This document shows, piece after piece, positions 333-27,305 of a stretch of 40,685 bases of DNA. Source of the DNA: Macrostomum lignano. Its lineage: Eukaryota. A program made the translations under genes and the position numbers. The number at the start of each line of letters is the position of its first letter. Positions within the stretch are counted from its first letter, which is position 1. The notes below the pieces were generated by a model. The model was not told where the DNA came from. It worked only from the letters and a program-made list of their open reading frames with translations, and ran no database searches. The stretch is from assembly GCA_002269645.1 (NCBI GenBank), contig NIVC01003845.1:1-40685 (forward strand), read 5' to 3'.

Positions 333-1097
333 TGTACTAGTGCTATGCCTTTATCATAGTATACTCGAATGTTCTTTCAATGTAATAACTGTATATTCGA
401 ATCTTTCTTAGAAACTGAATCTACGCGAACGCCAAATAATAGTTTGTTTTAATGCGCGAATTAAATTGGAGAATTATTTTTTGTTTTAATCGTATGTGGG
501 GAAAATCACTATATATAGGAGCGGTTTTGCGACAAATATACTCTAACTGTCTTTTACCGTGAGCAAATAATTGCGAACAGAATAAGCAGTTCAATCTAAA
601 CCATTTCAAAGTCTTTGAGCTAAATAGCGACTTATTTATTTGCAAAACCTGTGAAACGATTCTAAGAAATTTGCTAAGAGAAGGGAATTGGGACTAATTC
701 TTGGAGATATACCAAGAGAGGCGCCGTGACCCTCTAGTCTCGGTGAACGCCCGATTAGGACTATACACTAATACATATACCAGTACTAGACCGCTCAGGC
801 CATAAGCTACTAGAACGCTACCAGAAAGCAAGCCATAAGCTACCAGAAACGCTACTAAGAACGCTACCAGAAACGCTACTAAGAACGCTACCAGAAATAT
901 TTAAATGAAATTCTAAGAAATAGTTAGGGAGTAAAAGCAAGTATAATCAGGATAACTGTAGTTGGCAAATCGGTGGGATTAAAATTGATAAAGTAAGAGG
1001 TGAAAGGCCTGTAACAACTTTGGTGGCAGCTCGTAGGATATTTAATAAACACTAATAGTTAGAAGTTTAGAAAGACAGAGCCAAAAGGCCTGTCACA
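333..1097 (+). repeat. 5' (possibly shared) LTR, 765 bp
   Basis: Starts TGTACTAG one base after the PPT and ends GGCCTGTCACA just before the PBS. Near-identical to 8277-9044 (1 substitution and 3 single-base homopolymer indels seen). The left boundary is inferred from the PPT. Confidence 0.85.
799..897 (+). repeat. Short tandem repeats inside the LTR (GCCATAAGCTAC / AACGCTACCAGA / AACGCTACTAAG units)
   Basis: Visible direct repeats, also present in the 3' LTR. Confidence 0.8.
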
Positions 1098-1099
1098 GC

Positions 1100-1118
1100 T
1101 GGTGGCAGCGGTGGGATT
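1100..1118 (+). promoter_or_regulatory. Primer-binding site, tRNA-Leu (AAG/TAG type)
   Basis: TGGTGGCAGCGGTGGGATT lies 2 nt after the LTR. Its reverse complement AATCCCACCGCTGCCACCA has the T-stem/acceptor/CCA layout of metazoan tRNA-Leu 3' ends. Confidence 0.88.
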
Positions 1119-1196: not shown

Positions 1197-2174
1197 ATGA
1201 ATCAGAATCAGGCTAATGACGCCATCGCCATGCTGGCAGAAGAATTGCGAAACCGACTAGAGATAGGGCCGATGAGACACGTTAAGATTCAGAAATTCAC
1301 ACCTACGCAAGACATTCGGATCTGGCTAACAGCCTTCGATCAGCGCTGTGAAGTAGAAGGGATAGATGAGGAACATAGGAAGCAGGAATTGCTAGCTAAT
1401 CTGGACCTGTCCACTGCATTCGCAGCGGTACAGCGCCTAAATCTGCCCGAGGATCTTGAATACGAAGAGTTCAAAGAGCGACTGATTGAGCGATTCGGAA
1501 GAATCGGTAGTTCCGCAGAATTCAGAGAGGAGTTTCGTGGAAGAATGCAAGGCAGAAATGAGCCTGTAGAGACTTTCGCAGACTGTTTGATCGAGCTGGC
1601 ATCGCGTGCATTTCCGAATATGACGGTTGAGCAAAGGGAAGAAGAAATTGTTGAGCAATTCATCAAGGGAATCAGAATTCCGTCAGAGACCCGTGAGAAG
1701 CTAATCTTTGCGCAGCCAGGCAATTTACAAGAGGCTAGAAGAATGCTAAGAAGGATGGAGGCTGCGTGGAACATGTCTCACAAGAATGTCAACATGAGAA
1801 TGGCCAAAGGCGAAGGCGAGAGTGAGCAGAAGGCAGATCAGGAGAAGCTTGAGGACATCATCAAGAAGCAGAGAGCAGAGTTAGAGCAACAGAAGAAGGC
1901 GATTGAGGAGCTGATGGAAGAGAAGAGAGCTAGCCGTCAGCAGTATCATCCGCAGAATCAATATCAAACGTACGCTCAGGTCGCTGGACCGCCGCAGCAG
2001 CCGAGATATCGGCCGCAGCAGCAGCAGCAGCAGCAGCCAGTATGGCGCGGTCAGCCTCAGTTCAACAGGCAGCCACAGCAACAGCAGCAGCCTCGAGCCT
2101 GCTACAATTGCGGGAAGCTTGGCCACATGGCGAGGAATTGCCAGAGCGCTAGGCCAAACGGTCAGCGAGTGTGA
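1197..2174 (+). CDS. gag: Gag (capsid-like domain, coiled coil, Q-rich linker, CCHC zinc knuckle)
   Basis: 325 aa ORF with a retrotransposon-gag-type segment (FRGRMQGRNEPVETFADCLIELASRAFP) and a C-terminal CYNCGKLGHMARNC. Confidence 0.95.
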   Translation: MNQNQANDAIAMLAEELRNRLEIGPMRHVKIQKFTPTQDIRIWLTAFDQRCEVEGIDEEHRKQELLANLDLSTAFAAVQRLNLPEDLEYEEFKERLIERFGRIGSSAEFREEFRGRMQGRNEPVETFADCLIELASRAFPNMTVEQREEEIVEQFIKGIRIPSETREKLIFAQPGNLQEARRMLRRMEAAWNMSHKNVNMRMAKGEGESEQKADQEKLEDIIKKQRAELEQQKKAIEELMEEKRASRQQYHPQNQYQTYAQVAGPPQQPRYRPQQQQQQQPVWRGQPQFNRQPQQQQQPRACYNCGKLGHMARNCQSARPNGQRV

Positions 2175-5100
2175 CTACCAGAAGCAGCAGGGAAACTGAG
2201 TAGCGAGGGCCGCTTTGCGAGGCCACGTCCCTCTAGCAACAATTATCGCGAATTTCAGGCCTCTGAATTTGTAAATAATGCGTATCGAAGTAATGCCAGA
2301 CAGTATAGTAACAGCAGAACGCATGCCGAATTCAATAAATTTCACAGAAAACCAAATAAAAATTTTGCACCTCGTGTACATACGCCGCTTGCACCTAGTC
2401 ATGCGTCTGCCAGCCACAGTAGGCCGAATAATAAAGTACAAAGTACAGTAATTCCGAATGAGCATTCGAAGAAAGAATTCGAAGAAGATACGGAGAGAAA
2501 AGGACGAGAAGCAGTCGTCAATGGAATGCTAAGAAACCGAAAGGTCTACTTCCTGCTAGACACAGGAGCTGGACATAATTTCCTAAGCAAGAGTACTTGG
2601 AAAAAGATGTTCAGAAGTGATGAAATTGAGTTGACTACTAGAAGAGTGACTACGTTTGACGGATCAAGTGTGCGAATTGAAGGAGAAGTCAGAACGAAAA
2701 TACGATTCGGAGAGATAGAGATTGAGACAGAGTTCCTGCTGTGCAATCACGAGTGTGACGACATACTCGGGATGGAGTTCTTCATGAACTTCTGCGACAG
2801 CATCAGCCTTTCCAGAGGAATGCTTGTATTAAAAGAAGGGACCTGCATCCCAATTCAGTTTACAAAATTACCCGTACGGGTTTGCCGAATTTACAGCCAT
2901 AACAGCGTGACTATACCAGCGAATAGCGCTCTTCGAATTCCAATTAGAATGACTAAAGGATCAGAAGCTAACTATGGAACGCCAATGGTCATTGACACCA
3001 TTGGAGGCCAAGTGACTACGAAGAGAAATTCCTTAGAGATGATTCCTACTCTAGTGACCATGAACGATGGAACAGGAGTAGTGGAAATAATCAATCGACA
3101 GAATGACGATATCAGACTGACAAGATCTACGCTGATTGGAGTGGCCAAACCCTTGAAGCCAGGAGGCCTGGCCTACTCTATTAACAGCAAAGGTCAAGCC
3201 AGTTCAGATGATGCAATTAGGACAGTGAAGAGTGAAGAGAGTGAGTACAGCTGGATAAACGAGATCGATTTAGGAGAAGAGCTAACATCAGAACAGAAAG
3301 GACTAGTGATCGATTTGCTAAAGAAGAACAAGGAAGCATTTTCGCAGACCAACCAAGACATGGGTCTCACCCATCTTGTGACTCATGAAATATCTCTAAA
3401 AGATACCACACCGGTCAGGATTCCAACACGCAGAATTCCACCACATCTGCAAAAGCAAGTAGATGAGCAACTTGACGACATGCTTGCTAAGAACCTGATC
3501 CGACCATGCTATAGTACTTATTCAACGCCGCTAGTGATAGTTCCTAAGAAGGATGGATCCATAAGAATCGTCAGTGACTTCAGGGTCCTGAACTCGAGAG
3601 TGAACTATTACCCATATCCATTGCCGAACATACAAGAGACTTTCGCTCAGTTATCTGGAAGCAAGTACTTCAGTAGTCTAGATTTAAACTCTGGATACTG
3701 GCAGGTACCTATCAAAGAAGAGCACAAATTTATGACAGCCTTTTCCACCCTTACCAGAGGCCAGTTCGAATATCAGGTCATGGCACAGGGCTTGTCTAAC
3801 GCTCCTGGTACATTCCAGAGACTCATGAATTTGGTGCTGATGGGAATACAGCACAAATTCGCGATGTCGTACATAGATGATATTGTGACATACTCAGAGA
3901 AATTCGAAGATCATCTCGGTCATCTGCAAGAAGTATTTCAAAGACTAATCTCAGCAGGACTAAAATTAAGACCAAAAAAGTGCAACTTGTTTCAGAAAGA
4001 GCTAAAGTACTTAGGGCATATCGTAGGAAGAGAAGGGATTAGAACAGACCCAGCTAAGATCGAAGCGATACAGTCATGGCCTACGCCGAAAGAGGTCAAA
4101 GAACTGCGAAGCTTCTTGGGGTTGTGTAACTACTACTGCAGATTTGTAAAGAATTACGCAGAGGCAGCGCATCCACTATTTCAATTAACTAAGAAAGGTA
4201 TTCAAAACTTTAGGGAAAAGTGGACCAAGAAGCATGACGAGGCTTTCCAGCAGTTGAAGCAGAGAATGACATCGACCGAAGTACTCGCGTACCCAGAATT
4301 CTCAGAGAACGAAAATGTTCGAATGGTATTAGACACCGACGCAAGCGAAGACCGAATTGGTGCTTGCCTGGGTCAAATACAATCGGACGGGGTTGAAAGA
4401 CCCATTGCTTACTTCAGCAGAGCAATGAAAGAGTCTGAGAAAAGATATCCGATTACCAGAAAAGAGCTATTAGCGCTAGTAGATGGCATGAAACACTTCC
4501 GATTTTACCTAATTGGCAAAAGGTTTCTGGCCCGCACAGACCACAAGGCAATTCTATGGCTATTGCGCCAGACCGAAGCCCAAGGAATTCTCGGAAGATG
4601 GATTGAAAGACTGAGTGAGTTTCAATACGATATTGAGCACCGCAGTGGAGCCAAACATTCCAACGCAGATGGATTGTCACGGCGACCCTCGGAACCACCA
4701 GTTGAACAGAAAGATGCTAAGATCAAAGAGAATGAGGCCGAAATTCCTAAGATGACAATAGAAACCAGCGCTGTGAAACAAGTCGTGACTAGCAGCGTGA
4801 AAGATCAGAGTTGCCAGACCGACTTCACAGAAGAGTATGAATCAGATTCCGAAGACGAATTCGCAGATGATGAATACGAAGATGCCAGTGATCAGTTCGA
4901 AGATGATGATGACATCTATGAAGATGCAAGAGACTATTTCGAAGAGGAAGAGACAGTGTGCAGAAAGCTTCTGACAGATTACCTCTCGGTTCCATTGAAG
5001 AAAGAGCAGCTGACTTCAGCGCAGCATGCTGATCCTTCTATAAGAACCTTGATGGACTGGAAGCAGAAGAAAGTGCGTGAGCCGAAGTTACCAGAAAATG

Positions 5101-6716
5101 CATCCGGAGAATTGAAGAAGATGGTTAAGTTCTACGAGCAGATGAAAATCGAAGATGAAATGCTGACAGTCAGTGAAGACGGTAAACGAAAAGTAGTATT
5201 GCCAGAGAAGATTGAGAAAGATGTATTCAAAGAGCTGCACGACAGTCCGCTAGCAGGCCACCTAGGTCGGGACAAGACGCTACAGCGAGTCCGAGACCGA
5301 TTCTGGAGGCCGGGGTTAGTGACTGCAGTTGAAAAGTACATCGCAGAATGCATCCCGTGTCTGGAAAGTAAAAGCGGAAATAAAGTACGAGCACCGGTGC
5401 AGACCTTTCCGATATGTGAGCCATTCCATCGGCTGCACATAGATTTGATCGGTCCGATATCAAAGGAAAGCAGAAGAGGACACCGATATGTACTTACTGT
5501 TGTAGATAGTACAACGAAGTTCCCATTCGCTTTTCCGGTTCGGAATCAGAAATCCGCTACTGTTATCAAAACGATACAAGAGAGAATTTTCAGCGAGTAT
5601 GGCCAGTGCCAATGGATACACACTGATAATGGCAAGACTTTTGTAAGTCACCAATTTCAGGCATTCTGTACCCTATACGGCATTAAGCATACTTGCACTA
5701 CGCCTTACCATGCTCAGAGTAACGGGCTTGTCGAAAGATTTAACAAGCAAATTAAATCGATTGTAACCTGTTTGATTGAAAAGGATCATTCAGATTGGGA
5801 TCTGCTCATACCCGCCGCTTTGGTAGCTGTGCGAACCAGTGTTAATCAAACTACTGGGTTCACACCACACTACTTACTATTCGGGAGAGAAGCAGATTTG
5901 CCAATAGATAGCATTGTGAAAAGGCCAAGACTATACCGAGACTATCCTAGTTATGTGCTGGATCATGCGAAGAGAATCGAGGAGACAAAAGCAATTGTGC
6001 GAAGACAACTCGAAAAGGTGCGAGAGAAAAGGCAAGAGGACGAAGTTGAGAATCGTCAGCCTAAAAATGTGCCAGTTGGCTGTCTCGCTCTCATCAACAA
6101 CCCTCAACTTCACCAAGAGGAGAGCCACAAGTTTCATCGAAAGAAGAGAGCAGCCTATCGAGTACTTGCGAAGATATCAGACACAGTGTTCCGTGTGCAA
6201 AGAGAAATCAATGGCGAAAGGAGCGGAGAAAAACTATTAGTACATAGAAATAATCTGACTCCAGTGCCGAAATCCGAAATTGATTTACCAGAGGAAATTA
6301 ATAATAATTTAAAACCAGCACCAGTGTCAACTAAGAAGAAGGAATCGCCGAAGCCGAAGAAAAGAATTTGCCATAGACAAAAAGAAGTTAGAATTCCAGA
6401 AGTTCAAATTTTAGAGGAGGAAAGCTCAGACGAAGAAAACAGAATTCAATGGAGAGTATTCGCAGATCCGAATTCGCAGAGTGAAAACGAAGGAAATGAA
6501 GAATTGAACAGTGAGAATACAGAGAGAGCGACTGACTCAGATGAGCCATCAGAAGAAGAAGAAGGAGCAATAGAGTTAGAGGAGGAACGTGCTAACACAG
6601 TAGGAGGCTATAATTTGAGACCCCGAGACAATAGAGTGACTCAGCAAGAGAGAGAAAGAGAAGGCGCGACAGGATTTGTGCCCCGAAGGCGCTATGCGAG
6701 ATATTTAGCACCTTAA
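2175..6716 (+). CDS. pol: Pol (aspartic protease, RT, RNase H, integrase), in frame with gag behind a single TGA
   Basis: LLDTGA (PR), YIDDI (RT), LDTDAS (RH), H-x6-H...CxxC and DLIGP/TDNG/ERFN (IN). I translated 2175-2525 by hand and found no stops, so the frame is open from the gag stop onward. The first ATG (2526) is only about 10 codons before the PR active site. Confidence 0.95.
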   Translation, partial: LPEAAGKLSSEGRFARPRPSSNNYREFQASEFVNNAYRSNARQYSNSRTHAEFNKFHRKPNKNFAPRVHTPLAPSHASASHSRPNNKVQSTVIPNEHSKKEFEEDTERKGREAVVNGMLRNRKVYFLLDTGAGHNFLSKSTWKKMFRSDEIELTTRRVTTFDGSSVRIEGEVRTKIRFGEIEIETEFLLCNHECDDILGMEFFMNFCDSISLSRGMLVLKEGTCIPIQFTKLPVRVCRIYSHNSVTIPANSALRIPIRMTKGSEANYGTPMVIDTIGGQVTTKRNSLEMIPTLVTMNDGTGVVEIINRQNDDIRLTRSTLIGVAKPLKPGGLAYSINSKGQASSDDAIRTVKSEESEYSWINEIDLGEELTSEQKGLVIDLLKKNKEAFSQTNQDMGLTHLVTHEISLKDTTPVRIPTRRIPPHLQKQVDEQLDDMLAKNLIRPCYSTYSTPLVIVPKKDGSIRIVSDFRVLNSRVNYYPYPLPNIQETFAQLSGSKYFSSLDLNSGYWQVPIKEEHKFMTAFSTLTRGQFEYQVMAQGLSNAPGTFQRLMNLVLMGIQHKFAMSYIDDIVTYSEKFEDHLGHLQEVFQRLISAGLKLRPKKCNLFQKELKYLGHIVGREGIRTDPAKIEAIQSWPTPKEVKELRSFLGLCNYYCRFVKNYAEAAHPLFQLTKKGIQNFREKWTKKHDEAFQQLKQRMTSTEVLAYPEFSENENVRMVLDTDASEDRIGACLGQIQSDGVERPIAYFSRAMKESEKRYPITRKELLALVDGMKHFRFYLIGKRFLARTDHKAILWLLRQTEAQGILGRWIERLSEFQYDIEHRSGAKHSNADGLSRRPSEPPVEQKDAKIKENEAEIPKMTIETSAVKQVVTSSVKDQSCQTDFTEEYESDSEDEFADDEYEDASDQFEDDDDIYEDARDYFEEEETVCRKLLTDYLSVPLKKEQLTSAQHADPSIRTLMDWKQKKVREPKLPENASGELKKMVKFYEQMKIEDEMLTVSEDGKRKVVLPEKIEKDVFKELHDSPLAGHLGRDKTLQRVRDRFWRPGLVTAVEKYIAECIPCLESKSGNKVRAPVQTFPICEPFHRLHIDLIGPISKESRRGHRYVLTVVDSTTKFPFAFPVRNQKSATVIKTIQERIFSEYGQCQWIHTDNGKTFVSHQFQAFCTLYGIKHTCTTPYHAQSNGLVERFNKQIKSIVTCLIEKDHSDWDLLIPAALVAVRTSVNQTTGFTPHYLLFGREADLPIDSIVKRPRLYRDYPSYVLDHAKRIEETKAIVRRQLEKVREKRQEDEVENRQPKNVPVGCLALINNPQLHQEESHKFHRKKRAAYRVLAKISDTVFRVQREINGERSGEKLLVHRNNLTPVPKSEIDLPEEINNNLKPAPVSTKKKESPKPKKRICHRQKEVRIPEVQILEEESSDEENRIQWRVFADPNSQSENEGNEELNSENTERATDSDEPSEEEEGAIELEEERANTVGGYNLRPRDNRVTQQEREREGATGFVPRRRYARYLAP

Positions 6717-7114: not shown

Positions 7115-7990
7115 ATGGATAACTCAGTCGACATTCTGCAAGAGTTAATCGGTGACCTGTCCGAAGAGATTGAGCCTCAGCCGGAGCCTAATGTTGACGA
7201 GAACGAGGCGCCGCTACGTTGTCCAACAAGACCAAAGGCGCCTGGTGTAAGCAACAAAAGGCCGAGGGCATCGCCACAAGCATCATCGCCGTGCCGCCAA
7301 TTAAACGTGGAAGGCCCCGAGCAGAAGCGCGCCGCCCTGGTGGCAGCACAGGCAGCTGCGCCCGTGCGCTCCTATGTTGTCAAGGCCACGCCAGGATCAT
7401 CAACATCAAGCCGAACGCAGCAGTTGGTGTCACCGCCAGCTGCCCCATCATCGAGAAAGACCCCGGCACCACGGCAGAAGAAATCGACAGCTGCGACACC
7501 GCCAGCTCAGCAGCCAGCGTCGCAGCCGAGCCTGCAATCAGCGCAGCAGTCAGCGCTGCAGCCGAGCCTGCAATCAGCGCAGCAGTCTAGCCAGCCATCA
7601 GCACTACAGCCGAGCCAGCAGCAATCGAATTCGCAGAGAGATTTTCATCGCATCGTCCGAGAACTTGTGGAGACTCGCGGAGCAGAGGTGGAAAAGCTAC
7701 GCTTCCACATTGAGCAATACGCACTGAAAGTAGCATACCACCGATCCGACAGCCGACAGCGCTACCCCCAATGCTCGCAAATTTGGACACACCTGAAGTT
7801 TCTGAGGGATCAATTCAGTTACCAGGAAGCTGTCGCTGTTCTCCAGGAAGTCGCCTATCGCCTCCAGCGAGCTATAAGAGCCAACCCGCCGCCAGCGCTG
7901 ACGGTCCTCGACGAAGAGTACCGATGGTTTTTCGCTCAAGTCGGCTGGCCCTACTATCGCGACCTCCCGGAGCCCTGCATGTTTATCTGA
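7115..7990 (+). CDS. ORF3, accessory protein of unknown function (not env-like)
   Basis: Intact 291 aa ORF between pol and the PPT. Acidic N-terminus, KRPR NLS-like motif, S/P/Q/A-rich low-complexity middle and a ~115 aa complex C-terminal domain. No signal peptide or TM helix apparent. Confidence 0.75.
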   Translation: MDNSVDILQELIGDLSEEIEPQPEPNVDENEAPLRCPTRPKAPGVSNKRPRASPQASSPCRQLNVEGPEQKRAALVAAQAAAPVRSYVVKATPGSSTSSRTQQLVSPPAAPSSRKTPAPRQKKSTAATPPAQQPASQPSLQSAQQSALQPSLQSAQQSSQPSALQPSQQQSNSQRDFHRIVRELVETRGAEVEKLRFHIEQYALKVAYHRSDSRQRYPQCSQIWTHLKFLRDQFSYQEAVAVLQEVAYRLQRAIRANPPPALTVLDEEYRWFFAQVGWPYYRDLPEPCMFI

Positions 7991-8263
7991 ACTATTGAGG
8001 TGAACTAACTTTTGCGTTGCCTTTAATAACAATTTTGCCTTTTATAATACTTTTATAATAGTTCGTTTTGCTTCCATAATAGTTCTCACTTTAATGGTTT
8101 ACCTACATAATAGTTCTATCACAACCATTTTATGCACCAATTGGTTTAGCACTGAATTGTGTTTTCTGCACCTTGCTTTGCACCTTTTCACCTGCATTTT
8201 CCTACGATATCAATTTTTCACTGTATACATATAATATAGTATTTCGTTCAAAATTTGATATAT

Positions 8264-8275
8264 AGAGGAGGAAAG
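8264..8275 (+). promoter_or_regulatory. Polypurine tract
   Basis: AGAGGAGGAAAG followed by T and then the TGTA LTR start. Confidence 0.75.
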
Positions 8276-8276
8276 T

Positions 8277-9044
8277 TGTACTAGTGCTATGCCTTTATCA
8301 TAGTATACTCGAATGTTCTTTCAATGTAATAACTGTATATTCGAATCTTTCTTAGAAACTGAATCTACGCGAACGCCAAATAATAGTTTGTTTTAATGCG
8401 CGAAATAAATTGGAGAATTATTTTTTTGTTTTAATCGTATGTGGGGAAAATCACTATATATAGGAGCGGTTTTGCGACAAATATACTCTAACTGTCTTTT
8501 ACCCGTGAGCAAATAATTGCGAACAGAATAAGCAGTTCAATCTAAACCATTTCAAAGTCTTTGAGCTAAATAGCGACTTATTTATTTGCAAAACCTGTGA
8601 AACGATTCTAAGAAATTTGCTAAGAGAAGGGAATTGGGACTAATTCTTGGAGATATACCAAGAGAGGCGCCGTGACCCTCTAGTCTCGGTGAACGCCCGA
8701 TTAGGACTATACACTAATACATATACCAGTACTAGACCGCTCAGGCCATAAGCTACTAGAACGCTACCAGAAAGCAAGCCATAAGCTACCAGAAACGCTA
8801 CTAAGAACGCTACCAGAAACGCTACTAAGAACGCTACCCAGAAATATTTAAATGAAATTCTAAGAAATAGTTAGGGAGTAAAAGCAAGTATAATCAGGAT
8901 AACTGTAGTTGGCAAATCGGTGGGATTAAAATTGATAAAGTAAGAGGTGAAAGGCCTGTAACAACTTTGGTGGCAGCTCGTAGGATATTTAATAAACACT
9001 AATAGTTAGAAGTTTAGAAAGACAGAGCCAAAAGGCCTGTCACA
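8277..9044 (+). repeat. 3' LTR, 768 bp
   Basis: Matches 333-1097. Similarity ends exactly at ...GGCCTGTCACA (9044), followed by unrelated AT-rich DNA. Confidence 0.9.
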
Positions 9045-11190: not shown

Positions 11191-14100
11191 AAACATCAAA
11201 GAAGCGCAATGTCAAACATAGAAGAGCCAACATATCGAACATAAAAGAGTTACCATATCAAACATAGAAGAGCCACCATGTCGAACATTAAAGAGCCACC
11301 ATGTAGAATATTGAAGAGCCACCATGAAGAACATTAAAGAGCCACCATGTCAAACATTTAAGAGCCACCCTGTCAAACATAAAAGAGCCACCATGTCGAA
11401 CATTTAAGAGCCACCCTGTCAAACATAAAAGAGCCACCATGTCGAACATAAAAGAGCCACCATGTCAAACATAAAAGAGCCGCCATGTCAAACATAAAAG
11501 AGCCACCATGTCAAACATAAAAGAGCCACCATGTCAAACATAAAAGAGCCACCATGTCGAACATAAAAGAGCCACCATGTCAAACATAAAAGAGCCACCA
11601 TTTCGAACATTAAAGAGCCACCATTTCGAACATTAAAGAGCCACCATTTTGAACATTTAAGAGCCACCATTTCGAACATTAAAGAGCCACCATTTCGAAC
11701 ATTAAAGAGCCACCATTTTGAACATTTAAGAGCCACCATGTCAAACAATTAGAAGCCACCATGTCAAACATTAAAGAGCCACCATGTCGAACATTTAAGA
11801 GCCACCATTTCGAACATTAAAGAGCCACCATGTCGAACATTAAAGAGCCACCATGTCAAACATTTAAGAGCCACCATGTCAAACATTAAAGAGCCACTTT
11901 GTCGAACATTAAAGAGCCACCATGTTAAACATAAAAGAGCCACCATGTCGAAAATAAAAGAGCCACCATGTCAAACATAAAGAACCACCATGTCAAACAT
12001 TTAGGAGCCACCATGTCAAACATATATGTGACTTTATGTCAAACATTAAAGAGTTACCATTTCAAACCTTAAAAAGCCACTATGTCGAACATTAAAGAGC
12101 CACCATGTCTAACATAAAAGAGCTATACCATGAAGAACATTAAAGAGCCACCATGTGGAACATAAAAGAGCCACCATGTAGAATATTAAAGAGCCACCAT
12201 GTCAAACATTTAAGAGCCACCATGTCGAACATTAAAGAGCCACTATGTCAAACATTTAAGAGCCACCATGTCAAACATATATGTGACTTTATGTCAAACA
12301 TTAAAGAGCCACCATGTCGAACATTAAAGAGCCACCATGTGAAACATTAAGGAGCCACCATGTCGAACATTAAAGGGCCACCATGTAGAACATAAAAGAG
12401 CCACCATGTCGAACATTAAAGAACCACCATGTCGAACATTAAAGAGCCACCATGTCAAACCTAAAAGAGCCACCATGTCGAACATTAAAGAGCCACCATG
12501 TCAAACATAAATCTGGCATGATGTCAAACATTAAAGTGCCACCATATCGAACATTAAAGAGCCACCATGTCTAACAGTAAAGAGCCACCATGTCGAACAT
12601 TAAAGGGCCACCATGTAGAACATTAAAGAACCACCATGTCGAACATTAAAGAGCCACCATGTCAAACCTAAAAGAGCCACCAAGTCGAACATTAAAGAGC
12701 CACCATGTCAAACATAAATCTGGCATGATGTCAAACATTAAAGTGCCACCATATCGAACATTAAAGAGCCAACATGTCAAACCTAAAAGAGCCACCATGT
12801 CGAACATTAAAGAGCCACCATGTCTAACATAAATCTGGCATGATGTCAAACATTAAAGTGCCACCGTATCGAACATTAAAGAGCCACCATGTCTAACAGT
12901 AAAGAGCCACTATGTCAAAAATTAAAGGACCACCATGTCGAACATTAAAGAGCCACCATGTCAAAAATAGAAGAGCCACCATGTCAAACATAGAAGAGCC
13001 ACCATGTCTAACATTAAAGAGCCACTATGTCGAACATTAAAGAGCCACCATGTCTGACATAAAAGAGCCACTATTTTGAACATTAAAAGCCACCATTTCG
13101 AACATTAAAGAGCCACCATGTCGAACATAAAAGAGCCACCATGTCAATCATTAAAGAGCCACCATGTCAAACATAAAAGAGCCACCATTTTGAACATAAA
13201 AGAGCCAACATGTCAGACATTAAAAAAGCCACCGTATCAGATATAAGAGTTACTATGTAGAACAAAAAAGAGCCACCATTTCGAACAAAAAAGAGCCACC
13301 ATGTCAAACATGAAAGAGCCACCATGTCAAACACAAAAGAGCCAACATGTCAAACATAAAGAGCCACCATATCAAACATTTAAGAGCCACCCTGTCGAAT
13401 ATCAAAGAGCCACCATGTCGAACATTAAAGAGCCACCATGTCTAACATTAAAAGTCACCATGTTAAACATTAAAGAGCCACCATATCAAGCATAAAAGAG
13501 CCACCATGTCAAACCAAAAAGAGCCACCATGTCGAAAATTTAAGAGCTAAAATGTAGAATATAAAAGAGCCACCATGTCAAACCTAAAAGAGCCACCATG
13601 TCGAACACTTAAGAGCCACAATGTAAAACATTAAAGAGCCACCATGTAAAACAAAAGAGCCACCATGTTAAACATAAAAGAGCCACCATGTAGAATATTA
13701 AAGAGCCACTATGTTGAACATTAAAGAGCCATCATACTGAACATTAAACAGCCACCATGTCAAACCTAAAAGAGCTACCATGTCAACATAAAAGAGCTAC
13801 CATGTCAAACATTAAACAGCCATCATGTCAAACCTAAAAGATCCACCATTTCGAACACTTAAGAGCCACAATGTAGAATATTAAAGAGCCACCATGTCAA
13901 ACAAAAGAGCCACCATTTCTAACATTAAAGAGCCACCATGTCAAACATTTAAGAGCCACCATGTCAATTATATATGTGTCTTTATGTCATACATTAAAGA
14001 GCCACCATTTCGAACATTAAGGAGCCACCATGTCAAACATTTAAAAGCCACCTTGTCAAACATTAAATAGCCACTTTGTCGAACATTAAAGGGCCACTGT

Positions 14101-14275
14101 GTCAAACATAAAAGAGCCACCAGGTTAAACATTAAAGAGCCACCATGTCAAACAATAAAGAGCCACCATGTCAAACATAAAAGAGCCACCATGTCAGACA
14201 TTAAAAAGCCATTGTTTCAAACATAAAAGAGTTGCCATGTAGAACATAAAAGAGCCACCATGTCAAACATAAAAT
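11191..14275 (+). repeat. 23-bp satellite array, consensus GAGCCACCATGTC(A/G)AACAT(T/A)AAA
   Basis: Direct tandem repetition over ~3.1 kb with moderately diverged monomers. Confidence 0.95.
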
Positions 14276-14361
14276 TTACACAATTTCAAACGTAAAAGTA
14301 AGCGAATTTTAAAGGAGCCACTATAATGCTAAGGAAATTGTCGCACTAGCTACTTATTGTC

Positions 14362-14792
14362 TGGTGGATGCTTGCTATTTGGGGATGCTATCTATGTAGG
14401 GGATGCTTGCTATCTGGGGGATGCTTGCTATCTGGGGGATGCTTGCTATCTGGGGGATGCTTGTTATCTGGGGGATGCTTGCTATCTGAGGGATGCTTGC
14501 TATCTGGGGGATGCTTGCTATCTGGGGGATGCTTGCTATCTGAGGGATGCTTGCTATCTGGGGATGCTTGCTATCTGGGGGATGGTTGCTATCTAGGGGA
14601 TGCTTGCTATCTGGGGGATGCTTGCTATCTGGGGGATGCTTGCTATCCGGGGGTTGCTTGCAATCTGGAGGATGCTTGCTATCTGGGGGATGCTTGCTAT
14701 CTGGGGATGCTTGCTATCTGGGGGATGCTTGCTATCCGGGGTTGCTTGCAATCTGGAGGATGCTTGCTATCTGGGGGATGCTTGCTGTCTTG
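14362..14792 (+). repeat. 18-bp minisatellite GGGGGATGCTTGCTATCT
   Basis: Tandem copies with variable G-run; explains the spurious GDACYL/GGCLLS ORFs. Confidence 0.95.
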
Positions 14793-15550
14793 GAATGATT
14801 TCTTTTTGCATTGCACTTCCTTTGAGTATTTTGTCTGTTTTCTTTGCGAAGGCTTTTTTGGCTATCTTTTTGTTACTTGTAGAGAACAGAGGTTCTATAC
14901 AGATGTCCCCCAACGGGGGGCGAAGATTGCTAGTCCTATATACTAAAAATGAAAATCTTGCTTGCTTGCTTGCTTGCTTGTAATCGATTAGAGAAAAAAT
15001 GGCTTAACCGATTTTCATGAGACTTGCACTGTTCGATCAGAAATTTTCCCGTGACGGTACATGCATCTTGGCTAAGAAATTGCTCCATGTTAAAGGGATT
15101 AAATATTCGAAAAACATGCTTTTTTGCAAAGGTCAAGCAAACTTTTCGACTTGAAATGCATTGTAAGAATGCTAGAGAAAAAACTGACTGGTTGAATTCT
15201 GATTCTGAAATAGATTGCATCATAAATGAATTGTAACTCCGACTTGAATTGCGTCACAGTATTGAAAATGCAGTGTGGAAGCGTAGCACCAGACGTGATT
15301 TAGATTGCGTAACCATATTGTCAACTTTAATTGAGACTGATACTGACTTGCCTGGGAAATTGATTATGTCATAACTGCTTCGTTAGTGAGTGTTGAATTA
15401 TATAAGTGCTACAATCTCATTTATAAATTCAATAATAGCTAGCCTAGATGTGAACAGACTAGACTGCAAATGCAGCGACCTGGGTTCGAATCTTAGTAGT
15501 GAAAAGTTTTTTTATTAAAAGCTTTTATTAAAGGACAAATAAAGGACAAA

Positions 15551-18500
15551 AGGCGTCATGTAAAAAAGCATAGAAGCGTCATGTAAACAATCATTGAAGC
15601 GTCATGTAAAAATCATAGAAGCGTCATGTAAACAATCATAGAAGCGTCATGTAAAAAATCATAGAAGCGTCATGTAAACAATCATAGAAGCGTCATGTAA
15701 AAAATCATAGAAGCGTCATGTAAAAAATCATAGAAGCGTCATGTAAAAAATCATAGAAGCGTCATGTAAACAATCATAGAAGCGTCATTTAAAAAATCAT
15801 AGAAGCGTCATGTAAAAATCATAGAGTTTAAAAGATCATAGAAGCGTCATGTAAAAAATCATAGAAGCGTCCTGTAAAAAATCATAGAAGCGTCATGTAA
15901 AAAATCATAGAAGCGTCATGTAAACAATCATAGAAGCGTCATGTAAAAAATCATAGAAGCGTCATGTAAACAATCATAGAAGCGTCATGTAAACAATCAT
16001 AGAAGCGTCATGTAAACAATCATAGAAGCGTCATGTAAAAAATCATAGAAGCGTCATGTAAACAATCATAGAAGCGTCATGTAAAAAATCATAGAAGCGT
16101 CATGTAAACAATCATAGAAGCGTCATGTAAAAAATCATAGAAGCGTCATGTAAACAATCATAGAAGCGTCATGTAAAAAATCATAGAAGCGTCATGTAAA
16201 CAATCATAGAGTTTAAAAGATGATAGAAGCGTCATGTAAAAAATCATAGAAGCGTCATGTAAAAATCATAGAAGCGTCATGTAAAAAATCATAGAAGCGT
16301 CATGTAAAAAATCATAGAAGCGTCATGTAAACAATCATAGAAGCGTCATGTAAACAATCATAGAAGCGTCATGTAAACAATCATAGAAGCGTCATGTAAA
16401 AATCATAGAAGCGTCATGTAAACAATCATAGAAGCGTCATGTAAAAAATCATAGAAGCGTCATGTAAAAAATCATAGAAGCGTCATGTAAAAAATCATAG
16501 AAGCGTCATGTAAACAATCATAGAAGCGTCATGTAAAAAATCATAGAAGTGTCATGTAAAAATCATAGAGTTTAAAAGATCATAGAAGCGTCATGTAAAA
16601 AATCATAGAAGCGTCATGTAAACAATCATAGAAGCGTCATGTAAACAATCATAGAAGCGTCATGTAAACAATCATAGAAGCGTCATGTAAACAATCATAG
16701 AAGCGTCATGTAAAAAATCATAGAAGCGTCATGTAAACAATCATAGAAGCGTCATGTAAAAAATCATAGAAGCGTCATGTAAACAATCATAGAAGCGTCA
16801 TTTAAAAAATCATAGAAGCGTCGTTTAAAAAATCATAGAAGCGTCATGTAAACAATCATAGAAGCGTCATGTAAAAAATCATAGAAGCGTCATGTAAACA
16901 ATCATAGAAGCGTCATGTAAAAAATCATAGAAGCGTCATGTAAACAATCATAGAAGCGTCATGTAAAAAATCATAGAAGCGTCATGTAAAAAATCATAGA
17001 AGCGTCATGTAAAAAATCATAGAAGCGTCATGTAAACAATCATAGAAGCGTCATGTAAACAATCATAGAAGCGTCATGTAAACAATCATAGAAGCGTCAT
17101 GTAAACAATCATAGAAGCGTCATGTAAAAAATCATAGAAGCGTCATGTAAACAATCATAGAAGCGTCATGTAAAAAATCATAGAAGCGTCATGTAAACAA
17201 TCATAAAAGCGTCATTTAAAAAATCATAGAAGCGTCGTTTAAAAAATCATAGAAGCGTCATGTAAACAATCATAGAAGCGTCATGTAAAAAATCATAGAA
17301 GCGTCATGTAAAAATCATAGAAGCGTCATGTAAAAAATCATAGAAGCGTCATGTAAACAATCATAGAAGCGTCATGTAAAAAATCATAGAAGCGTCATGT
17401 AAACAATCATAGAAGCGTCATGTAAAAAATCATAGAAGCGTCATGTAAACAATCATAGAAGCGTCATGTAAAAAATCATAGAAGCGTCATGTAAACAATC
17501 ATAGAAGCGTCATGTAAAAATCATAGAAGCGTCATGTAAAAAATCATAGAAGCGTCATGTAAAAAATCATAGAAGCGTCATGTAAACAATCATAGAGTTT
17601 AAAATGATAGAAGCGTCATGTAAAAAATCATAGAAGCGTCATGTAAAAATCATAGAAGCGTCATGTAAAAAATCATAGAAGCGTCATGTAAAAAATCATA
17701 GAAGCGTCATGTAAACAATCATAGAAGCGTCATGTAAACAATCATAGAAGCGTCATGTAAACAATCATAGAAGCGTCATGTAAAAATCATAGAAGCGTCA
17801 TGTAAACAATCATAGAAGCGTCATGTAAAAAATCATAGAAGCGTCATGTAAAAAATCATAGAAGCGTCATGTAAAAAATCATAGAAGCGTCATGTAAACA
17901 ATCATAGAAGCGTCATGTAAAAAATCATAGAAGCGTCATGTAAAAATCATAGAGTTGTAAAAATCATAGAAGCGTCATGTAAAAATCATAGAAGCGTCAT
18001 GTAAACAATCATAGAAGCGTCATGTAAACAATCATAGAAGCGTCATGTAAACAATCATAGAAGCGTCATGTAAACAATCATAGAAGCGTCATGTAAAAAA
18101 TCATAGAAGCGTCATGTAAAAAATCATAGAAGCGTCATGTAAACAATCATAGAAGCGTCATTAAAAAATCATAGAAGCGTCATGTAAACAATCATAGAAG
18201 CGTCATGTAAAAAATCATAGAAGCGTCATGTAAAAATCATAGAAGCGTCATGTAAAAATCATAGAAGCGTCATGTAAAAATCATAGAAGCGTCATGTAAA
18301 AAATCATAGAAGCGTCATGTAAACAATCATAGAAGCGTCATGTAAAAAATCATAGAAGCGTCATGTAAAAATCATAGAAGCGTCATGTAAAAAATCATAG
18401 AAGCGTCATGTAAACAATCATAGAAGCGTCATGTAAAAATCATAGAAGCGTCATGTAAACAATCATAGAAGCGTCATGTAAAAAATCATAGAAGCGTCAT

Positions 18501-20025
18501 GTAAAAAATCATAGAAGCGTCATGTAAAAAATCATAGAAGCGTCATGTAAACAATCATAGAAGCGTCATGTAAAAATCATAGAAGCGTCATGTAAAAAAT
18601 CATAGAAGCGTCATGTAAAAAATCATAGAAGCGTCATGTAAAAAATCATAGAAGCGTCATGTAAAAAATCATAGAAGCGTCATGTAAACAATCATAGAAG
18701 CGTCATGTAAAAATCATAGAAGCGTCATGTAAACAATCATAGAAGCGTCATGTAAAAAATCATAGAAGCGTCATGTAAAAATCATAGAAGCGTCATGTAA
18801 AAAATCATAGAAGCGTCATGTAAAAATCATAGAAGCGTCATGTAAACAATCATAGAAGCGTCATGTAAAAATCATAGAAGCGTCATGTAAACAATCATAG
18901 AGTTTAAAAATCATAGAAGCGTCATGTAAAAATCATAGAAGCGTCATGTAAAAAATCATAGAAGCGTCATGTAAAAAATCATAGAAGCGTCATGTAAAAA
19001 ATCATAGAAGCGTCATGTAAACAATCATAGAAGCGTCATGTAAAAATCATAGAAGCGTCATGTAAACAATCATAGAAGCGTCATGTAAAAAATCATAGAA
19101 GCGTCATGTAAACAATCATAGAAGCGTCATGTAAAAATCATAGAAGCGTCATGTAAAAATCATAGAAGCGTCATGTAAAAAATCATGGAAGCGTCATGTA
19201 AACAATCATAGAAGCGTCATGTAAAAAATCATAGAAGCGTCATGTAAAAATCATAGAGTTAAAAATCATAGAAGCGTCATGTAAAAAATCATAGAAGCGT
19301 CATGTAAACAATCATAGAAGCGTCATGTAAAAATCATAGAAGCGTCATGTAAAAATCATAGAAGCGTCATGTAAACAATCATAGAAGCGTCATGTAAAAA
19401 TCATAGAAGCGTCATGTAAACAATCATAGAAGCGTCATGTAAAAATCATAGAAGCGTCATGTAAAAATCATAGAAGCGTCATGTAAAAAATCATAGAAGC
19501 GTCATGTAAAAATCATAGAAGCGTCATGTAAAAAATCATAGAAGGTCATGTAAAAATCATAGAAGCGTCATGTAAACAATCATAGAAGCGTCATGTAAAC
19601 AATCATAGAAGCGTCATGTAAAAAATCATAGAAGCGTCATGTAAAAAATCATAGAAGCGTCATGTAAAAATCATAGAAGCGTCATGTAAAAATCATAGAA
19701 GCGTCATGTAAACAATCATAGAAGCGTCATGTAAAAATCATAGAAGCGTCATGTAAAAAATCATAGAAGCGTCATGTAAAAATCATAGAAGCGTCATGTA
19801 AAAAATCATAGAAGCGTCATGTAAAAATCATAGAAGCGTCATGTAAACAATCATAGAAGCGTCATGTAAAAATCATAGAAGCGTCATGTAAACAATCATA
19901 GAAGCGTCATGTAAAAAAGAAGAAGTGTCATTAAAGAAGCGTCATGGAAAAAAAAGAAGCGTCATGTAACGAAGCGTCATGTCAGAAGCGTCATGAAAGA
20001 AGTGTAAAGAAGCGTCATGTAAAAA
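15551..20025 (+). repeat. 23-bp satellite array GAAGCGTCATGTAAA(C/A)AATCATA, highly homogeneous
   Basis: ~4.5 kb of tandem monomers, with 22-bp variants arising from A-run length. Confidence 0.97.
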
Positions 20026-20858
20026 TTAAAAGAAGCTATTGTGCTGTGCTGGGGAGACTTACTGAGATGTCAAGGCTTACGGAGAAAAACTGAGATTACG
20101 GGGGGGGGGGTTTCTGAGCTGTCAAAGCAAAAGTCAGAAACTACTTCAAACTTCATGTACTTTCCTCAATTTTTTATTACATTCTTTGTTGGCTCGCCAC
20201 GGGGGGCGCTGATAGAAGAAGAGTCATGTGAAAAAGAAAAGAAGCACTATGTATACATAAAAGAAAAGTCATGTCGAAGTTAAAAGATTCATTTGGGAAT
20301 TGCTACGATGTCAAGGCTTGGAGGGAATCGTTATAGTGCTGTGATTCTTAAAGAAGGAATCACTAAAATGTCAAGGCTTAGGGGAGAAGAATTGCTGAGA
20401 TTTCAAGGCTTTAGGTTGGGTTAAAGTTAGGTTTAGGTCAGGTTTGGGTTGAGGGTTAGATTTTAGCGGGTTTCAAGGTTAACAGGGGATTTTTCAGATA
20501 TCAAGGTTTATGGGGGGCATTCCTGACATGTCAAGGCCAACGGGGGGAATAGCTGAGATTTCAAGGCTCATGGGGGAATAAATGAGATGTCAAGGCTAAA
20601 GTCAGAAGCAAGGACTACTTAAGTAGTCCTTGGTCAGAAGCTACATGTAGTCTATTGAAAACTTTTTTTCAATATTTGTTGGCTCCTCACGGGAGGGATC
20701 GCTGATAGAAAAAGCGTAATGTAAAAAATAAAAGAAGCTTCATGTCGAAGTTAAGAGATTCATTTGGGAATCCCTACGATGTCGAGGCTTCCAGGGAATC
20801 GCTATAATGCTGTAGTGCTATAATGACTGTTGGAGAGAATTACTGAAATGTCAATGCT

Positions 20859-20916
20859 TTAGGGTTAGGGTTAGAGTTAGGGTTAGGGCTAGGGTTAGGG
20901 CTAGGGTTAGGGTTAG
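20859..20916 (+). repeat. Interstitial telomere-like (TTAGGG)n tract in the tail of B
   Basis: About 10 TTAGGG/CTAGGG units; a more degenerate tract lies at ~20411-20460. Confidence 0.85.
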
Positions 20917-21740
20917 AAGGTTGACAGATTTTTTAAGATTTCAAGGCTTATGGGGCATTGCTAAGATGTCAAGGGGATTGATATGCTAAGGCTTGTGGGG
21001 GGATTTTCTGACATGTCAAGGCTTACAAGGTATAATGCAAAGAGACGCTTACATGTAGTTTATTAAAAAAACTTGTACTGCATTTTTTTGGCTCCCCAAC
21101 GGGGGGCGCTGATTGCTAGTCTAAATATACTAAAAATGGTCTGTCTGTGTCTATCTATCTATGTGATCGATTAGAGAAAAAATGGCTGGACCGATTTTGT
21201 TCGAACTTGCACTGTTCGATCAAAAATTTTCCCGTGACTGTACATGCATCGTGGCTAAGAAATTGCTCGATGCTAAAGGCATTAAATATTCGAAAAACAT
21301 GCTTTTTTGCAAAGGTCAAGCAGCTCTTTCGACTTGAAATGCATTGTAAGAATGCTAGAGAAAAAACTGACTGGTTGAATTCTGATTCTGAAATAGATTG
21401 CATCATGACTGAATTGTAACTCCGACTTGAATTGAAAATGCAGTGTGGAAGCGTAGCACCAGACTTGATTTAAATTGCGTAACCATATTGTTAACTGATA
21501 CCGACTGACTGAAAAACTGATTATGTCATAACTGCTTCGTGTGATTTACTCTATGCTTGGATTTTAAAGTGTTGAATTATATAAGTGCAAAATTTGATGT
21601 TATCAAAACGATGAGAGCTAGCCTAGAGGTAAACAGACTGAACTGCTAAATGCAGAAACGATGGTTCGAATTTTCATAGAGTATAATTTTTTTTAATTGA
21701 AGCTTTTCAACGTCAGGAAAACTAAAAGACTTTTTAAAAA

Positions 21741-24195
21741 GAATCGTCATGTAAAAATCGTAGAAGCGTCATGTAAAAAATCATAGAAGCGTCATGTAAA
21801 CAATCATAGAAGTGTCATTTAAAAAATCATAGAAGCGTCATGTAAACAATCATAGAAGCGTCATGTAAAGAATCGTAGAAGCGTCATGTAAACAATCATA
21901 GAAGCGTCATTTAAAAAATCATGGAAGCATCATGTAAACAATCATAGAAGCGACATGTAAAAAATCGTAGAAGCGTTATATAAAAATCATAGAAGCGTCA
22001 TGTAAACAATCATAGAAGCGACATGTAAAAAATCGTAGAAGCGTTATATAAAAATCATAGAAGCGTCATGTAAAAAATCATAGAAGCGTCATGTAAAAAA
22101 TCATAGAAGCGTCATGTAAACAATCATAGAAGCGTCATGTAATGAATCATAGAAGCGTCATGTAAACAATCATAGAAGCGTCATGTAAACAATCATAGAA
22201 GCGTCATGTAAAAAATCGTAGCAGCGTCATGAAAAAATCATAGAAGCGTCATGTAAACAATCATAGAAGCGCCAAGTAAAAATCATAGAAGCGCCATGTA
22301 AAAAATCATAGAAGCGTCATGTAAACAATCATAGAAGCGCCATGTAAACAATCATAGAAGCGTCATGTAAACAATCATAGAAGCATCTTGTAAAAAATCA
22401 TAGAAGCGTCATGTACAAAAATCATAAAAGCGTCATGTAAAAAATCGTAGCAGCGTCATGAAAAAATCATAGAAGCGCCATGTAAAAAATCGTAGAAGCG
22501 TTATATAAAAATCATAGAAGCGTCATGTAAACAATCATAAAAGCGTCATGTAAACAATCATACAAGCGTCATGTAAACAATCATAGAAGCGTCATGTAAA
22601 CAATCATAGAAGCGTCATGTAAAAAATCATAGAAGCGTCATGTAAAAATCATAAAAGCGTCATGTAAACAATCATAGAAGCGTCATGTAAACAATCATAG
22701 AAGCGTCATGTAAAAAATCATAGAAGCGTCATGTAAACAATCATAGAAGCGTCATGTAAAAAATCGTAGCAGCGTCATGAAAAAATCATAGAAGCGTCAT
22801 GTAAAAAATCATAGAAGCGTCATGTAAACAATCATAGAAGCGCCATGTAAACAATCATAGAACCGTCATTTAAAAAATCATAGAAGCGTCATGTAAACAA
22901 TCATAGAAGCGCCATGTAAAAAATCGTAGAAGCGTTATATAAAAATCATAGAAGCGTCATTTTTAAAAAATCATAGAAGCGTCATGTAAACAATCATAGA
23001 AGCGTCATGTAAACAATCATAGAAGCGTCATGTAAACAATCATAGAAGCGTCATGTAAACAATCATAGAAGCGTCATGTAAACAATCATAGAAGCGTCAT
23101 GTAATTAATCATAGAAGCGTCATGTAAAAAATCATAGAAGCGTCATGTAAACAATCATAGAAGCGTCATGTAAACAATCATAGAAGCGTCATGTAAAAAA
23201 TCATAGAAGCGTCATGTAAACAATCATAGAAGCGTCATGTAAAAAATCATAGAAGCCTCATTTAAAAATCATAGAAGCGTCATGTAAACAATCATAGAAG
23301 CGCCATGTAAAAAATCGTAGAAGCGTCATATAAAAATCATAGAAGCGTCATGTAAACAATCATAGAAGCGTCATGTAAACAATCATAGAAGCGTCATGTA
23401 AAAAATCATAGAAGCGTCATGTAAACAATCATAGAAGCGTCATGTAAACAATCATAGAAGCGTCATGTAAAAAATCATAGAAGCGTCATGTAAAAAATCA
23501 TAGAAGCGTCATGTAAACAATCATAGAAGCGTCATGTAAAAAATCGTAGAAGCGTCATATAAAAATCATAGAAGCGTCATGTAAACAATCATAGAAGCGT
23601 CATGTAAAAAATCATAGAAGCGTCATGTAAAAAATCATAGAAGCGTCATGTAAAAAATCATAGAAGCGTCATGTAAAAATCATAGAAGCGTCATGTAAAC
23701 AATCATAGAAGCGTCATGTAAAAAATCATAGAAGCGTCATGTAAAAAATCATAGAAGCGTCATGTAAAAAATCATAGAAGCGTCATGTAAACAATCATAG
23801 AAGCGTCATGTAAAAAATCATAGAAGCGTCATGTAAACAATCATAGAGTTTAAAAGATGATAGAAGCGTCATGTAAAAAATCATAGAAGCGTCATGTAAA
23901 AAATCATAGAAGCGTCATGTAAAAAATCATAGAAGCGTCATGTAAAAATCATAGAAGCGTCATGTAAACAATCATAGAAGCGTCATGTAAACAATCATAG
24001 AAGCGTCATGTAAACAATCATAGAAGCGTCATGTAAAAAATCATAGAAGCGTCATGTAAAAATCATAGAAGCGTCATGAAAAAATCATAGAAGCCTCATT
24101 TAAAAAGTAATGAAAGTGTCATTTAAAATATTAAGAAGCATCATGGTAGAATAAAAGAAGCGTCATGTCAGACATGAAGGGTGTCATGTAAAAAT
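21741..24195 (+). repeat. 23-bp satellite array of the B type, more diverged proximally
   Basis: GAAGCGTCATGTAAA(C/A)AATCATA monomers plus variants such as CGTAGAAGCGTTATATAAAA. Confidence 0.95.
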
Positions 24196-25871: not shown

Positions 25872-27305
25872 CTAGTCAGCGTCGGACTTGGTCTTGATCC
25901 TTTCGGCCACAGCTGCCGTAAATGCAGCGCCCTTTCCACTACCGTCCTCGGCAAGAATCAAGTGGGTATAAACATCCTCACAATGAATGTCTAGAAATTC
26001 TTGAATGAGAAACTGCAATTTCGGGTGCTTTTTGTACAGAGAGCCATCAACCGCGATTGCGACCTCAGTGCGCTGAATGCGCTCGACGAACACGGACAGT
26101 CCGGCAGCGACAATCTGAGCTGCGCGCACCGACAAAGCGTTCGCCAGGTACCGAACAACGTGGTAGTCCTCATCAGAGATGCTGCTCAGTTTCAGCTCCT
26201 TCAGACAGCGGTATGTTTGGCTCAGGTCTCGGTGATTGTCCTGCTCTACTCGAGAGATGAAGGATGAAGGGAAGCTGCCTGGTGTAAGCAGCGCCGGAGA
26301 CGGCTGGCCTCCGAAGACGAGACCCTCGTCGCAGAGCTTCACGAGAGTGACGCGAGCTAGCTCTCCGAGGTACATTCCGCTGAAAAGCTTCTCGAACGTG
26401 TACGTTCCGGCATAGAGCGACTCGTTATCCAGCTGGAAGTCGAACTCAGTCTTGAGAAACTTGATCACTCCATTGTCTCCGAACGCACCCCACTCAGTGT
26501 TCACAATGACGTATTCGTACTCTTGAAACTCGGACGGCGAATGTCCAGTCAGAGACTGCCACTTTGGAATGTTGCAGATTCTCTCCATGTAGCAGACGTT
26601 GCTGCCGGTTCCCATGATGAGCCCGATACCGCACGATGCGTCCATGAATGCACCACTCATGAGTGTTCCAGTGGTGTCGTTCAGAACTGCGAGTACGTCG
26701 ATTTTGAGCGAGTGTTTGTTGATTGCGTCTTGCAGAAGCTTCACCGGATCTTTTCCGATTCCGTCTTTGATTGATAGGGACTTGTTCAAACGCTCGATCA
26801 CACCGGAAGTAAGAGAGGTGAGTCCCAGAGGGTATGAGTACGTGAATCCGAGCGGAATTCGCTTTTCGGAGCTGTCCAGCTTCTCCTTGTGGACGAACTC
26901 GGCCAGCTTATCAGCGATAAAGTCAAACAACTCGGCTGCCGTTCCCTTGAGTCTCTCAGTCGGGATGGCAAAGTTCTCGCAGCTGCTGAAACACCTGCTG
27001 CCACTGCGCAACGAAACATCGAGAATTCGAAAGTTTGTTCCGCCGAGATCCAGCGCCAAGAAGTTTCCTCTCTCGGAACCGTTAAGCAATCCGCGAACAA
27101 ACGTGACAGCCATTTGAAGCGAGCTCGCTTTCCTTTGTTCTGGGTCATCGCTGAGTCCTTTCTCAATCTCCTCCCTGAGTCTATCTTTGAGCTCGCAGAT
27201 CTGTTGATGGCTTATTATGAACTTGCTTATCATGGACTTTATTCGCCAATCTTTTTCCGAGGTGACTTCCATATCCAATCGACTTGATCGTCTGATACGA
27301 CTCAT
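25872..27305 (-). CDS. Hexokinase (~50 kDa single-domain type), intronless
   Basis: 477 aa with LALDLGGTNFRI, LGFTYSYP, NDTTGTL, GTGSN, NTEWGAFGD, FEKLFSGMYLGEL, VDGSLY and EDGSGKGAA. Confidence 0.95.
   Translation of the reverse strand: MSRIRRSSRLDMEVTSEKDWRIKSMISKFIISHQQICELKDRLREEIEKGLSDDPEQRKASSLQMAVTFVRGLLNGSERGNFLALDLGGTNFRILDVSLRSGSRCFSSCENFAIPTERLKGTAAELFDFIADKLAEFVHKEKLDSSEKRIPLGFTYSYPLGLTSLTSGVIERLNKSLSIKDGIGKDPVKLLQDAINKHSLKIDVLAVLNDTTGTLMSGAFMDASCGIGLIMGTGSNVCYMERICNIPKWQSLTGHSPSEFQEYEYVIVNTEWGAFGDNGVIKFLKTEFDFQLDNESLYAGTYTFEKLFSGMYLGELARVTLVKLCDEGLVFGGQPSPALLTPGSFPSSFISRVEQDNHRDLSQTYRCLKELKLSSISDEDYHVVRYLANALSVRAAQIVAAGLSVFVERIQRTEVAIAVDGSLYKKHPKLQFLIQEFLDIHCEDVYTHLILAEDGSGKGAAFTAAVAERIKTKSDAD

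Follow-up and report, generated by a model that had tools for sequence, protein, structure and literature searches.

The question raised by this locus is how the integrase of an LTR retrotransposon without a chromodomain reaches chromatin. To our knowledge, how integrase finds chromatin is unanswered for most LTR retrotransposons, and chromodomains and the Ty1/Pol III association cover only a few lineages. In chromoviruses, the chromodomain is the C-terminal targeting module of the integrase. The element considered here lies in the window, a stretch of 40,685 nucleotides from the flatworm Macrostomum lignano (assembly GCA_002269645.1, contig NIVC01003845.1), and its integrase tail contains the octapeptide GGYNLRPR. 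The features of the element and of its integrase tail are as follows.

333 to 1097 (+): 5' LTR, TG...CA, 765 nt, common to an upstream tandem copy
1100 to 1117 (+): primer-binding site, beginning TGG and presumably tRNA-Leu-like
1197 to 2174 (+): gag with a CCHC zinc knuckle (PF00098, E=1.6e-7; PF03732, weak)
2175 to 6716 (+): pol ORF of 1513 aa, in the order PR-RT-RH-IN by Pfam
5202 to 6263 (+): folded integrase with H2C2 domain, catalytic core and SH3-like CTD (PF17921, PF00665, PF22938; AlphaFold model)
6294 to 6713 (+): predicted disordered integrase tail of about 140 aa with an acidic middle (pLDDT <50)
6333 to 6365 (+): basic segment KKKESPKPKKR, one Lys of which is aligned throughout
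6423 to 6452 (+): second conserved island SSDEENRIQW, an acidic run with an invariant Trp
6603 to 6626 (+): GGYNLRPR, with the conserved core YNLR at 6609-6620 and the putative arginine anchor at 6618-6620
6681 to 6695 (+): PRRRY, a second arginine/tyrosine element kept in closer families
7115 to 7990 (+): ORF3, an additional ORF located after pol and before the 3' LTR, with a low-complexity N-half and a five-helix C-domain
8277 to 9044 (+): 3' LTR, with a polypurine tract just before it

The TG...CA LTRs, the primer-binding site, the polypurine tract, and gag followed by PR-RT-RH-IN identify the element as a Ty3/Gypsy LTR retrotransposon. Its two LTRs align with 1 mismatch and 3 gap columns. 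The upstream tandem copy is cut by the contig start, so that bases 1-332 repeat 7945-8276, and tandem elements with a common LTR also occur on another contig (G000:C2404; L003, L004, L117). The gag stop TGA of the window copy is in frame with pol (2160-2200) and is a mutation or an assembly error; in nine regions of related copies, the gag stop directly follows a GGGAAAC heptamer, which is typical of -1 frameshifting. A long acidic linker (4690-4960) joins RNase H to integrase within pol. The absence of a visible chromodomain from the integrase, remarked upon in the earlier note, agrees with the Pfam search, in which PF00385 gave no match after the integrase CTD at E<=0.1, and no folded element was modeled past residue 346. 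The element is thus outside the chromovirus type. Foamy viruses have an env gene and a Gag without a zinc knuckle. The window element is not a spumaretrovirus, having the motif on its integrase, a CCHC knuckle in its Gag, and ORF3, without a Pfam match, as its sole extra ORF.

ORF3 is an orphan accessory gene. A TATAAAT lies upstream of it at ~7026, and every related family that was checked has retained its five-helix C-domain (pLDDT 92), at identities as low as 25%. It matched no Pfam family, none of 4021 candidates of 160-510 aa was a homologue, and Foldseek gave no match at E<=0.001; the best VIA Z was 7.7, a score that is uninformative for a helical bundle. Elsewhere in the window, two 23-nt satellite arrays and one 18-nt array (11191-24168) start downstream of the element at a distance of ~2 kb. 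The translations of two intronless ORFs at 25872-27320 and 32364-33811 (-) look hexokinase-like by eye; the latter ORF is split by a frameshift near 33300-33400. A 362-aa ORF at 29378-30466 (-) has a weak QRICH1 match (E=0.002) and resembles, in our estimation, a fragment of a Crypton-type tyrosine recombinase.

The codons GGA GGC TAT AAT TTG AGA CCC CGA at 6603-6626 encode GGYNLRPR in frame with the pol ORF, with the Tyr 35 residues ahead of the pol stop, and the terminal segment of pol reads VPRRRYARYLAP. The earlier note had placed this peptide at the same position of the integrase tail, together with an acidic stretch, KKKESPKPKKR and the terminal VPRRRYARYLAP, and all of these are present in the translation. 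Its claim of identity to the chromatin-binding peptide in the Gag of prototype foamy virus (PFV) also holds, as the PFV peptide in Table 1 of PMC12125541 begins with GGYNLRPR, an 8/8 match. From the composition of the tail, the expected counts are 1e-5 for YNLRPR and 2e-8 for the 8-mer, values which ignore the post-hoc choice of the motif. A PDB sequence search with a 25-aa peptide gave 0 matches at E<=10 in a library without chains of <20 residues, which may miss the PFV and lamin peptides. With an alignment as query instead, ribosomal L3 was the sole match (E>=0.11, on the GFVPRRR part) and was taken as chance.

In an AlphaFold2 model of the integrase, for which an alignment of 46 rows was used, the zinc domain, the core and the SH3-like CTD are folded up to residue 346, and only loop follows beyond the CTD. 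The pLDDT is <50 across most of residues 357-496, including the motif at residues 460-467, and the motif is thus predicted to lie in an accessible disordered region. Within the same tail, SSDEENRIQW may be a phospho-regulated docking motif, and KKKESPKPKKR is a possible NLS in the subfamily of the window element. KKKESPKPKKR as a conserved partner of the motif was ruled out, as the segment dissolves in diverged families.

An integrase search of the genome returned 86 matches, of which 50 were examined, namely the best 30 and 20 picked across the remaining 56. YNxR is present downstream of the CTD in 44 of these 50 loci (41 in frame, 3 past a frameshift), copy counts that are not independent events because the assembly has been described as redundant. 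The in-frame motifs comprise 20 YNLR, 11 YNFR and 10 YNTR. Among the other six loci, one is truncated, one was missed by the anchor pattern though YNTRS is present, and the four most distant have no YNxR. The motif persists in relatives with as little as ~60% integrase identity, whose tails have just 22-27% identity, and synonymous codon changes are seen within it across 14 lineages spanning this distance. In these lineages, the invariant residues of the 146-aa tail are five, K, W, Y, N and R; as the 14 were chosen for carrying the motif, this invariance is partly circular, and 44/50 is the unbiased count. The nearest sister family (L047-L050, P0003; integrase identity 47-54%) is without YNxR and has RPxRxRxxPxR instead.

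The residues around this core are less constant. In 11 of the 16 closest loci the motif reads YNFRM, so that L, P and the second R are lost, several of these loci having intact pol frames; YNFRM is the motif of the commonest young subfamily. Other relatives read YNLRP, YNLRR and YNTRS. GG was ruled out as part of the motif, being found in two loci only (L001, L002). Judged from these alignments, the full 8/8 identity to PFV is partly coincidence, because GG is confined to those two loci and the basic segment is lost in diverged relatives, and the real unit is YN[LTF]R. The Tyr and the putative anchor Arg are conserved while the flanks diverge. The earlier note had named lack of conservation in related elements as an outcome that would refute it, and the count of 44/50 is the opposite result. 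It had also drawn attention to the motif together with the basic segment upstream; of this pair, the Tyr and putative anchor Arg are kept, but KKKESPKPKKR is not the conserved part.

The motif is not restricted to this genome. Foreign proteins (246) were pooled and filtered to retain those with a full CTD, without RT downstream and with a tail of 30-350 aa, by which 90, 14 and 37 were dropped, respectively, and 105 were kept. The enrichment of YxLRxR in Gypsy integrase C-termini that the earlier note had suggested looking for is present: the pattern occurs in 9 of the 105 tails, where shuffling gives a mean of 0.1 (at most 2 in 500 shuffles), and at a density of 0.74 per 1000 aa in the tails against 0.01 in the rest of the same proteins. 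With looser filters, it occurs in 11/144 tails, every time within 70 residues of the C-terminus. About 90% of the foreign Gypsy tails are without it. One foreign Gypsy tail (P0050) reads YNLRSR, and 3 of 5 Copia matches have YxLR between the integrase CTD and RT, one of them as GYNLRPR. On a 109-row integrase FastTree, YxLRxR is scattered, with 9 changes, 7 of which are forced by well-supported branches; for shorter cores, a quick IQ-TREE required 5 changes, 2 of them forced. These counts suggest repeated gain or loss of the motif. A single origin within Gypsy is unsupported by the FastTree count.

Other lineages have RYPxR, RRSxR, TRSGR or RPxRxRxxPxR at the same position of the tail, often with PxRY/F after it, which is also the PFV arrangement, and intermediates such as RYNTRRQVRPP are present in the clade of the window element. 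The RRSxRxRxxP type presumably resembles the CENP-C motif. Other Gypsy families of the M. lignano genome (L051-L080) end in RRSGRQRRRPDFY or TRSGRxVRF, which are further arginine motifs. Arginine motifs of any class occur in 70/144 tails against 19.4 in shuffles, the patterns being post hoc. They occur in 69/131 tails without a chromodomain and in 1/13 with one (Fisher p=0.002), a contrast drawn from post hoc patterns and non-independent related rows, seven of which also supplied the chromodomain profile. YxLRxR alone showed no significant exclusion with the chromodomain (0/13 vs 11/131, p=0.6).

A pattern scan of the genome, in which Phe and Ser were also admitted, gave 231 matches against 97 for a reversed control. 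The first 30 loci of the scan comprise 12 of a second Gypsy family, 3 of the clade of the window element and 15 unrelated; among a further 20 hand-picked loci, 11 belong to the second family, with HG, HT, HP or HS preceding the motif. The Pol of this family ends in YNLRPR and a stop after variable residues, and its integrase core is 25-28% identical to that of the window element. One member (L177:1122-8231 on G000:C102) is a single long ORF of 2370 aa, in which the zinc knuckle is separated from the protease by ~1000 residues containing 15 Cys and 7 NxS/T sites. Hydrophobic stretches at aa 493 and 1087 flank this gag-pol insert, which is env-like and gave no Pfam match at E<=0.01.

The YN[LTF]R core belongs to a known kind of peptide. 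In PFV Gag, R540Q leaves almost no nucleosome binding at physiological salt, whereas Y537Q reduces it ~5-fold (PMC12125541), and there is strict conservation of Y537 and R540 among foamy viruses while R542 is variable (PMC6042332). In the 2.3 A cryo-EM structure of lamin A, the Y, N, L and R of YNLRS touch the H2A-H2B acidic patch (bioRxiv 10.1101/2024.08.05.604734). The contact residues named in the PFV and lamin papers are all present in the host histones, namely E56, Y57, A60, E61, E64, D90 and E92 of H2A and V41, Q44, H106 and E110 of H2B. In the window peptide the Y-x-L-R core is the same and its Tyr lies at -3 from the putative anchor Arg; L is replaced by F or T in its relatives.

PFV Gag (aa 534-546; PDB 5MLU as cited in PMC12125541) and the window element have all eight residues of GGYNLRPR in common, the Tyr and anchor Arg are conserved on both sides, and both peptides belong to the integration complex of a retroelement. 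Both have a P..RY element after the motif, PRRRY in the window element loosely resembling the PQRY downstream of the PFV motif, with a longer and variable spacing in the window element. In contrast, the PFV motif is on Gag, in a Gly/Arg box, and that of the window is on the integrase tail, where relatives differ in GG, P and the second R. Lamin A (aa 579-583) also has the Y-N-L-R core in a disordered tail, but it is a host structural protein unrelated to integration, in which modest affinity is reported to be offset by high concentration. The motif is thus a generic YNLR-type short motif, special neither to the window element nor to foamy viruses. KSHV LANA, HCMV IE1 and MLV p12 are described in PMC9040877 and PMC6021111 as short arginine-anchor peptides with a proposed chromatin hold on the viral genome or pre-integration complex; their flanking residues differ from those of the window motif, and none of them, as described there, is on an integrase. 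In the Tal1 paper (PMC11735389), the Ty1 integrase C-terminal region is said to bind Pol III (supplement), one R/K change in the Copia integrase tail (Tal1/EVD IN2) redirects insertion, and Copia integrase tails are called generally unconserved; no acidic-patch mechanism is named in the available main text and five supplements. Ty1, Tal1/EVD, the chromovirus modules and, putatively, the window element are alike in having targeting information on a variable, disordered integrase C-terminus.

Taken with these binders, YN[LTF]R is probably a recurring arginine anchor that docks into the H2A-H2B acidic patch and thereby tethers integrase to nucleosomes. Its Arg would enter the pocket of H2A E61/D90/E92 and its Tyr would pack at the H2A/H2B groove. 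The tail would stay on the mature integrase, and the ~110-residue linker would give the integration complex the reach to grip the target nucleosome or its neighbour. Such a tether, in an element without a chromodomain, would raise the local concentration on chromatin and may steer insertion sites. The earlier note had proposed a tether of this kind, and it is partly supported, by the conservation of the motif, the second family and the YxLRxR enrichment; the likeness to foamy viruses on which it was built is not foamy-specific. Points against a tether are YNFRM in 11 of the 16 closest loci, RPxRxRxxPxR in the sister family, the ~90% of foreign tails without YxLRxR, and the lack of significant exclusion between that pattern alone and chromodomains. 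The plant NMCP1 motif described below also suggests that motifs of this type may be read out in other ways.

It is unlikely that the motif instead belongs to a signal for nuclear import or for localisation to the nuclear rim. The tail is basic, K[KR]x[KR] shows mild enrichment among tails (23/144 vs 13.3), and the plant NMCP1 motif RYNLRR (R/Q/HYNLRR/H) is described as NLS-linked and required for nuclear-rim localisation, a result that would equally fit chromatin binding. The Lys-rich segment is the unconserved part of the tail. Some relatives read RRHPY, which we take to resemble the PY-type NLS consensus, but most variants have no P ahead of Y, and a motif whose Y and N never vary but whose basic neighbours do is presumably unlike the classical consensus. 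The conservation itself demonstrates a function and not its partner, and with a long acidic tract adjoining the motif and a Pol III-binding Ty1 integrase as precedent, the peptide may be imagined to dock to a different acidic partner, for example a histone chaperone, some chromatin factor, or the capsid or acidic tail of the element itself. This is quite unlikely, since the same four residues occur in two unrelated proteins that are both reported to bind the acidic patch, and the recurrence of the motif in Gypsy and Copia suggests a target that is universal and conserved.

A basic integrase end that binds nucleic acid (target DNA, cDNA or genomic RNA) would account for the many shapes of the arginine-rich tail ends, which are expected if charge dominates. 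However, the ordered invariance of Y and N, together with the enrichment over composition-keeping shuffles, points to a shaped pocket and makes this reading very unlikely. Chance, or descent from or transfer with foamy viruses, is the most improbable account, and barely credible: the unconserved GG means that the 8/8 identity overstates the likeness, but conservation and enrichment exclude chance for the core, and transfer is unneeded given the 9 changes on the 109-row tree and the occurrence of the motif in lamin A. The preferred reading is that of a nucleosome tether. A wider form of it, in which Gypsy and Copia elements without a chromodomain commonly tether through a terminal arginine anchor, is offered tentatively, as a conjecture we would not yet favour. 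YNLR, RYPxR, RRSxR and TRSGR may then be interchangeable acidic-patch grips, foamy-virus Gag may use the same device, and small changes may retune insertion.

Full-text searches, including one for the literal motif, found no report of it in retrotransposon integrases; subscription papers were mostly outside these searches, so an earlier report is possible. In the available text of the acidic-patch review PMC9040877, the word 'retrotransposon' does not occur. The motif is real, conserved, recurrent and of a known kind, at a location for which no report was found. Integrase tails are usually described as unconserved, and a recurrent four-residue motif at the tail end contrasts with that description. 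The anchor motif may also account for target switches by a single arginine, as in Tal1/EVD. For many of the remaining lineages, a four-residue histone anchor would be one simple and cheap hypothesis, and transgenesis is available in the flatworm host.
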